DNA of 64,000 nt from NCBI RefSeq assembly GCF_001677475.2, contig NZ_CP015229.1; one strand, given 5' to 3'. The position numbers and the translations under genes are program-made. A model generated the notes under the pieces. That model had not been told where the DNA came from. It was given only the letters and a program-made list of their open reading frames with translations, and ran no database searches. Below are positions 60,068 to 60,221 of this stretch, one piece after another; the stretch's first letter is position 1, and every line of letters starts with the position of its first letter. The DNA comes from Escherichia coli (lineage in GTDB: Bacteria; Pseudomonadota; Gammaproteobacteria; Enterobacterales; Enterobacteriaceae).

Positions 60068-60142
60068 TGGAGCGGGTAGCGGGAATCGAACCCGCATCAT
60101 CAGCTTGGAAGGCTGAGGTAATAGCCATTATACGATACCCGC
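60068..60142 (-). tRNA. tRNA-Gly (anticodon UCC)
   Basis: 75-nt cloverleaf folded by hand, anticodon loop CUUCCAA, T-loop GGTTCGATTCC, 3' CCA. Confidence 0.8.
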
Positions 60143-60145
60143 ATA

Positions 60146-60221
60146 TGGTGCCGACTACCGGAATCGAACTGGTGACCTACTGATTACAAGTCAGTTGCTC
60201 TGCCTGCTGAGCTAAGTCGAC
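60146..60221 (-). tRNA. tRNA-Thr (anticodon UGU), one T-stem mismatch
   Basis: 76-nt cloverleaf folded by hand, anticodon loop CUUGUAA, 3' CCA. Confidence 0.6.

Follow-up and report, generated by a model that had tools for sequence, protein, structure and literature searches.

What are the two tRNA genes in the late region of this lambdoid prophage: working genes that serve the phage, or remnants that are carried along with it? We have addressed this question in a window of 64,000 nucleotides (the whole stretch of Escherichia coli DNA that was analysed), in which ARAGORN finds exactly two tRNA genes, lying side by side.

The tRNA genes and their host counterparts

The tRNA-Gly(UCC) gene is at 60068-60142 and the tRNA-Thr(UGU) gene at 60146-60221, both on the minus strand. 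Read on that strand, the order is tRNA-Thr, a 3-nt spacer (UAU, 60143-60145) between the CCA end of the threonine tRNA and the 5' end of the glycine tRNA, and then tRNA-Gly. Both the positions and the anticodons agree with those proposed in an earlier note on this DNA. ARAGORN scoring, suggested there as a check, calls the two genes as Gly(tcc) and Thr(tgt), and the Rfam tRNA model RF00005 matches both over its full length (1-71, Infernal), with 65.6 bits for tRNA-Gly (E ~5e-12) and 65.0 bits for tRNA-Thr (E ~7.5e-12). These scores exceed the gathering score of the model (29) by more than 35 bits, and with E values calculated for the whole window against 4227 families both matches are far above the chance level. 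The CCA end is encoded in both genes. The anticodon loops (CUUGUAA in tRNA-Thr and CUUCCAA in tRNA-Gly) each have 7 nt, with U33 and a purine at position 37.

The two genes are paralogues of the host genes thrU and glyT. The prophage tRNA-Thr is identical to K-12 thrU at 73 of 76 positions: two of the differences, U16 to C and U20 to C, are in the D-loop, and the third, C2 to U, creates a U2.G71 pair. Its RF00005 score is 9 bits lower than that of thrU, which reaches 73.8 bits. Between the prophage tRNA-Gly and K-12 glyT, 73 of 75 positions are identical and the sole differences form a compensatory pair, U6-A67 in place of C6-G67. The anticodon stem-loops of both prophage tRNAs are those of the host genes. 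Since the host operon is ordered thrU-tyrU-glyT-thrT, the prophage keeps the host order minus tyrU and the spacers. A test for capture of the host operon together with its flanks found no homology to the flanks or spacers of that operon. Gene conversion, and not selection, could account for part of this close resemblance to the host genes.

The T-stem of the threonine tRNA (ACCAG/CCGGU) has one non-canonical pair, A52-C62, in the Infernal alignment. The earlier note had remarked on this mismatch, which is indeed present, and had taken it as a sign that the tRNA may be non-functional. That suspicion is refuted by the host gene: the T-arm of K-12 thrU is identical, and Infernal marks A52-C62 at the same alignment columns. 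To our knowledge, thrU is the sole gene for a threonine tRNA with a UGU anticodon in K-12, so that the mismatch cannot signal decay. Thus A52-C62 is no defect: E. coli tRNA-Thr(UGU) has it natively, and a false alarm is removed.

The identity elements for aminoacylation were compared with the bacterial sets listed in PMC9976931. For GlyRS these are U73, G1-C72, C2-G71, G3-C70, C35 and C36, and the set is complete in the sequence of the prophage tRNA-Gly (GCGGGUA...UACCCGCUCCA, with the anticodon UCC). The ThrRS set consists of G1-C72, C2-G71, G35 and U36 (PMC9976931). Judged by its sequence, the prophage tRNA-Thr has G1-C72, G35 and U36, while the pair 2-71 is U.G and not C-G, and a partial impairment of this tRNA is therefore possible. 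This U2.G71 allele at a ThrRS identity pair, which is private to the clade of the window, is the one real oddity of the pair of genes and had been missed by the earlier note.

Neighbouring genes and flanking RNA elements

The window runs from fliF via dsrA and rseX to yodB and then into a lambdoid prophage on the minus strand. In the late direction the order is Q, a CPBP protease gene, small ORFs, a broken methylase gene, the tRNAs, a gene for a 180-aa phrog_5091 protein, TerB, DUF3927, IraM (on the opposite strand) together with STnc100, holin, lysozyme, Rz and terminase. Annotation and Pfam matches thus bear out the location given in the earlier note, between a methylase (a remnant) and the late cargo genes, which the lysis genes follow, as well as its assignment to the late-operon strand, the tRNAs being co-oriented with Q, holin, lysozyme and terminase. 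The antiterminator Q gene (62495-62869, minus) matches Pfam Phage_antitermQ with E = 3e-51, and a candidate late promoter pR', TTGCCA-17-GATAAT, is found at 62372-62400 (minus) by consensus match only, with 10 of 12 positions matching. The holin gene is at 57399-57695 and the lysozyme gene at 55768-56301, both on the minus strand.

Upstream, the tRNAs adjoin what is left of an N6/N4 DNA methylase gene (60336-60885, minus), a pseudogene that matches Pfam N6_N4_Mtase over no more than positions 1-105 of 221. After this N-terminal half of the domain comes an out-of-frame piece with a C-terminal motif, homologous to the methylase ends of relatives, and PGAP labels the gene 'incomplete' in the 99.75%-identical genome of strain 09-00049. 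A full methylase lies upstream of the cassette in phage SerU-LTIIb, and relatives too have a methylase at that place.

Several other genes of the region were noted. A gene for a CPBP/Rce1-like intramembrane protease (61522-62346, minus) comes right after Q and the candidate late promoter. Late operons do not usually begin with such a gene, and only one of the related cassette loci listed has it. The 180-aa cargo ORF (59181-59723, minus; phrog_5091) has no Pfam or PADLOC match; ACA makes up 5 of its 9 threonine codons, which are too few to test. It is followed by a terminator-like hairpin (59096-59136, minus), which over 41 nt shares 85% identity with the terminator annotated after argO, upstream of stx2A, in phage 933W. 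This resemblance suggests that the 180-aa gene occupies the toxin slot. Between the cargo genes and the holin are an STnc100 sRNA (58167-58342, minus; 93.7 bits), which shares 72% identity with the 933W sequence that lies downstream of stx2B, and a gene for an IraM-like anti-adaptor (57787-58122, plus). At the prophage end beside yodB, isrK (72.9 bits) and C4 antisense RNA (59 bits) adjoin a gene with an ORF6N domain (29240-29421 and 29468-29971 for the set as a whole), an arrangement that looks like an antirepressor control module of the P1/Gifsy type. An IS21-family element (30049-32300, plus), with an IstA-like transposase of 499 aa and an IstB ATPase of 251 aa, is located in the tail-fibre end of the prophage and is absent from 09-00049. 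A PADLOC match to 'DrmD' at 30049-32300 was rejected as a defence gene, the match being to the IstB ATPase fold of this element.

Immediately upstream of tRNA-Thr the sequence folds into a leader hairpin (60226-60281, minus; -18.8 kcal/mol, z = -2.1), which is preceded by a -10-like TATTAT at 60289-60294. The same leader architecture, GGTTCC...GGAACC followed by AAT and the tRNA, with a hairpin of ~55 nt, is found in relatives that have the Thr-Gly pair only, including phage SerU-LTIIb. The latter has a good promoter, TTGAAA-16-TAATAT, ahead of the hairpin; the position in the window that matches its -10 element reads TGGGTT. No convincing sigma-70 promoter or -35 element was found upstream of the tRNAs in the window, where the best local promoter-like site (60323-60350) has a 9/12 match that is no better than in shuffled sequences. 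A local promoter is therefore doubtful in the window, given only a -10-like TATTAT and the TGGGTT at the matching -10 position.

The earlier note had also described a strong terminator after the tRNAs. Such a terminator exists, ACCGCCACACCTGGCGGT with a run of nine T residues and a 7-bp GC-rich stem at 59762-59787 (minus), which was identified in a terminator search and is kept in the ETEC 720632 relative, but it lies ~280 nt downstream of tRNA-Gly, with structured RNA in between. The first of the intervening elements is a conserved multibranch RNA domain (59942-60046, minus), whose closing stem is CAGCACUG/CAGUGCUG and which ends in a U-run; it resembles a terminator and forms the 3' trailer of the tRNA unit. 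The second is a long hairpin (59859-59941, minus) with arms of ~27 bp, several of whose G.U pairs are possible only on the minus (tRNA) strand. Over the 328 nt that separate tRNA-Gly from the next ORF, the RNA folds far more stably than shuffled sequences (z = -7.5). An alignment of 32 distinct versions of the trailer, taken from downstream of the cassette and analysed with RNAalifold and by counting pairs, gives a consensus structure of 58 pairs, in which 98.7% of the cells are paired and 15 pairs have changed on both sides; such pairs numbered 6.8 +/- 1.5 in shuffled controls (none of 500 reached 15) and 3-5 in slid controls. The long hairpin (helix 5) contributes 26 pairs, of which 6 have changes on both sides, and is 99.5% paired.

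The trailer element is present in ~40 of the 116 cassette loci listed and, by megablast, in 25 of 5426 E. coli genomes, a search in which more diverged versions would be missed. Against Rfam at E <= 1 it gave only chance miRNA-like matches and no known family, and comparison with the Q-to-S region of 933W gave no similarity. Most likely the trailer RNA is the terminator and processing region of the cassette, or else it may be an uncharacterised sRNA; it may be related to the sRNAs PasA and PasC, which have been described near prophage holin genes (PMC13192938). As a covarying RNA with no Rfam family it is a by-product of this analysis that is possibly worth a specialist's time.

Distribution of the pair and its relation to the ileZ-argN-argO cassette

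A pattern search for the 3' end of the threonine tRNA, a variable gap and the 5' end of the glycine tRNA matched IMG/VR contigs numbering at least 120. Among the 120 matches listed, 118 have a gap of 3 nt (TAT in 115) and the remaining two a gap of 4 nt. The T-arm with A52-C62 is kept in all 118 readable viral copies among these matches, although the 3' half of this arm was prescribed by the pattern used in the search. Among the same 118 copies, 75 threonine alleles are identical to host thrU, 28 have C16/C20 and none has U2. The nearest relative beyond the clade of the window, strain 08-00022, carries C2 in its threonine tRNA. Because U2 is absent both from the viral copies listed and from 08-00022, it is a recent change private to the clade. 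The commonest glycine allele among the viral copies listed is that of glyT (C6-G67, 56 copies), followed by U6-A67 (37 copies), U6.G67 (4 copies) and a single C6/A67; the glycine tRNA of the window thus has the common U6-A67 allele. In these sequences the variation at 6:67 is textbook compensatory evolution, which argues that the acceptor helix is under selection.

In 47-49 loci among the at least 120 contigs the cassette is located upstream of holin or lysozyme genes; 62 of the 120 contigs listed have more than 2.5 kb of downstream flank. Among complete E. coli genomes, 5420 match, at 6578 places in all. If the host operon accounts for one of these in every genome, approximately 1,150 further copies remain, presumably prophage-borne. 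The part of the window from 55615 to 64000, and only that part, is 99.75% identical to strain 09-00049, in which PGAP annotates the same two tRNAs, and a Thr/Gly pair is annotated in RefSeq genomes and in the records of phages phi467, JLK-2012, vB_EcoS-683R6 and others. A search of the literature on ileZ/argN/argO and on Thr-Gly prophage tRNAs found no paper on this Thr-Gly pair. The pair is a genuine, ordinary and well conserved prophage tRNA cassette that is already known and annotated.

The anticodons of the pair had been said in the earlier note to differ from the ileZ-argN-argO set of Stx phages. They do differ from those in the record of 933W, the features of which were taken from its GenBank annotation, but the pair is not of a separate kind: relatives join Thr-Gly to ileZ and an argN-type tRNA. 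Among the 120 contigs listed, 49 have Thr-Gly alone and ~65 have arrays of four tRNAs, namely a tRNA with the anticodon CAU, a second tRNA, Thr and Gly, separated by spacers of 1, 2 and 3 nt. The CAU tRNA is 100% identical to ileZ of 933W. The second tRNA uses the scaffold of argN, to which it is 79% identical, and carries UCU, UUU or aberrant anticodon loops. A near-consensus promoter, TTGCAG-17-TATTAT, is found 8-9 nt 5' of the first tRNA of these arrays, and 933W annotates the site as 'pT, putative tRNA promoter'. Since the arrays of relatives share ileZ, the argN scaffold and pT, we regard the Thr-Gly pair as a module or variant of the ileZ-argN-argO cassette family. In the loci that have the leader hairpin, this hairpin sits where the four-tRNA arrays have ileZ and the argN-type tRNA.

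The tRNA bodies of the relatives also occur with other anticodons. The thrU scaffold is found with UUU (called Lys) and UCU (called Arg), for example in the cassette loci of ETEC 720632 (positions 2901-2976 of the locus) and phage SerU-LTIIb (positions 1349-1424 of the locus) and in several IMG/VR loci. The argN-type scaffold has UCG, UCU, UUU or aberrant loops that ARAGORN leaves unassigned or reads as AAA, UUA or UAA. To judge from these sequences, this looks like anticodon switching (Thr, Lys, Arg) on fixed tRNA bodies. Such switching could matter for defences that target tRNA-Lys and may interest specialists.

Possible function and comparison with known systems

An enrichment of GGA and ACA codons in the late genes of the prophage had been proposed in the earlier note as a further check. 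Codon use was compared between 28 host and 29 prophage ORFs of the window, a small host set and crude, greedy ORF calls, and no enrichment of these codons was found within their families (GGA, odds ratio 1.21, p = 0.3; ACA, odds ratio 1.05, p = 0.8). In the same sets, GGR accounts for 0.398 of the glycine codons in the prophage versus 0.285 in the host (p = 6e-5; 30.2 versus 19.4 per 1000 codons), and ACR for 0.518 versus 0.433 of the threonine codons (p = 0.011; 34.2 versus 22.6 per 1000 codons). GGR and ACR codons are ~1.5-fold commoner in the prophage than in the neighbouring host genes, and their sum reaches 73-80 per 1000 in the long tail genes. In relatives, the ORFs that flank the cassette have ~13 GGA and ~14 ACA per 1000, compared with 8.5 and 9.5 in the host sample. 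The excess of GGR and ACR is not specific to these two tRNAs, because the whole prophage prefers G-ending codons (CAG, CGG, AGG, AAG, GAG); it agrees with a role in codon supply but does not single it out. In the relatives, the tRNAs that an array contains do not match the codons used around it: AUA and AGA are not higher near the Ile and Arg tRNAs, and AGA is if anything lower. The idea that the prophage lost ileZ and the arginine tRNAs through lack of need was dropped, AUA and AGA being no richer beside the Ile/Arg arrays. Codon supply is the best-supported function, although only moderately supported, since the Ile/Arg arrays are not found among genes richer in AUA and AGA.

The explanation that we favour, and consider probable though well short of certain, is that these are two genuine and most likely functional tRNA genes of a lambdoid prophage, diverged copies of thrU and glyT that would add to the host supply for late translation. 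The cassette is compact, consisting of the leader hairpin, tRNA-Thr, the 3-nt spacer, tRNA-Gly and the structured trailer with its terminators, and it lies between Q and the lysis genes, where lambdoid phages classically have an accessory slot. The tRNAs would be transcribed on the minus strand within the Q-antiterminated late transcript, to which a weak local promoter may add, a clear promoter being present in relatives. As in standard E. coli maturation, RNase P would cut the precursor at the 5' end of each tRNA, and host RNases would trim the 3-nt spacer and the trailer; addition of CCA should be unnecessary. The mature tRNAs could then supplement single-copy minor isoacceptors of the host that read ACA/ACG(/ACU) and GGA/GGG.

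There are rival explanations. One is that the threonine gene, or both genes, are decaying, poorly functional pseudo-tRNAs carried with the prophage, which is unlikely. The change of C2 to U places a U.G pair at a listed bacterial ThrRS identity element (PMC9976931); the allele is recent and private, as judged by the 118 viral copies listed and by 08-00022; the Infernal score falls 9 bits short of that of thrU; and the adjoining methylase is a pseudogene in a window with no good promoter. However, A52-C62 is native to the functional host thrU, the U.G pair can still form, and every other stem of the threonine tRNA is intact, as are its anticodon loop, G35/U36, A73 and CCA, while the glycine tRNA has a common allele with a complete GlyRS identity set and both genes stand more than 35 bits over the model threshold. 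We think it distinctly improbable that the tRNAs are neutral passengers, serving mainly as conserved stretches of homology at which mosaic lambdoid phages can recombine with one another, or with the host operon, and not for translation. The near-invariance of the tRNA sequences between flanks that belong, on both sides, to several unrelated families would fit such a role, as would the observation that homology between relatives often stops near the tRNA borders. Compensatory evolution at 6:67 with U.G intermediates, spacing of 1, 2 and 3 nt that is fixed across arrays, a dedicated conserved promoter in relatives and a covarying trailer speak against it and indicate a maintained expression unit.

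There remains a role in counter-defence, in which the pair would replenish tRNA-Thr and tRNA-Gly, or act as decoys for them, against toxins that attack the acceptor stem (the toxSAS FaRel2, or the GNAT toxins AtaT2/TacT) or against a tRNA nuclease. FaRel2 selects exactly tRNA-Gly and tRNA-Thr through the acceptor pairs 1-72, 2-71, 4-69 and 5-68, with tRNA-Gly2 (UCC) the most enriched, so that its targets coincide exactly with the two tRNAs of the cassette, and phages are described as supplying alternative isoacceptors against PARIS and retron defences (PMC11559606). Moreover, differences from the host are in the acceptor stem, at 6:67 in tRNA-Gly and at position 2, a FaRel2 determinant, in tRNA-Thr. 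A phage with its own copies could, were this true, keep translating after the toxin fires. The evidence nevertheless makes this role very unlikely. The glycine tRNA keeps all four FaRel2 determinants, of which 6:67 is not one, and in a check of the toxin determinants only the U2 of the window's threonine tRNA touches a FaRel2 determinant, the others being host-like. Most viral copies listed are identical to host thrU (75 of 118) and glyT (56), and therefore offer no evasion; the anticodon stem-loops are those of the host; FaRel2 is of Firmicute origin; and no tRNA-targeting system was found when six ORFs of the window, three from the prophage end and three from the neighbourhood of the tRNAs, were scanned against PADLOC. 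Ancestry offers a simpler account of why Thr is paired with Gly, as thrU and glyT are neighbours in this order in the host operon. Very unlikely, too, is the specific proposal that the cassette is an anti-defence device in which U6-A67 of tRNA-Gly (in the family) and U2.G71 of tRNA-Thr (in the clade) are partial escape alleles.

Codon supply by two host-derived tRNAs, the reading that we prefer, can be set beside several known systems. With the thrU-tyrU-glyT-thrT operon of E. coli the prophage pair shares 96-97% identity to thrU and glyT, the gene order and orientation, A52-C62 and the encoded CCA; it differs in having 3-nt spacing and neither tyrU, thrT nor the spacers of 8 nt and 116 nt. 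The tRNA cluster of phage T4 comprises eight tRNAs, including Gly-UCC and Thr-UGU, which are made from closely spaced dimeric precursors. The prophage cassette resembles that cluster in these two anticodons, which serve NNA/NNG codons of minor host isoacceptors, and in its very short inter-tRNA spacers, which imply RNase P-dependent maturation of a multimeric precursor. In contrast, T4 is a virulent phage with AT-rich DNA, and its tRNAs do not closely copy those of the host, whereas the tRNAs here are 96-97% host-like and G-ending codons are preferred. The counter-defence tRNAs of phage T5 against PARIS and retrons, as cited in PMC11559606, are similar in that phage isoacceptors duplicate a host tRNA that a toxin can target; they differ from the host at the toxin site, whereas here the anticodon arms are identical to those of the host and most copies are identical throughout.

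The closest comparison is with ileZ-argN-argO of 933W. Both cassettes occupy the same slot on the same strand, after Q, pR' and terminators and before the cargo and lysis genes, and in both the tRNAs are closely packed and followed by terminators. The window differs in having a leader hairpin in the place of ileZ, the argN-type tRNA and pT, and Thr(UGU) with Gly(UCC) instead of argO; downstream, in place of a toxin gene, it has the phrog_5091 gene of unknown function, TerB and DUF3927. The pair thus represents a reduced form of the cassette family to which ileZ-argN-argO of Shiga-toxin phages belongs, and annotators should read it as belonging to a single tRNA unit, modular and exchangeable, at the junction of Q with the lysis genes.
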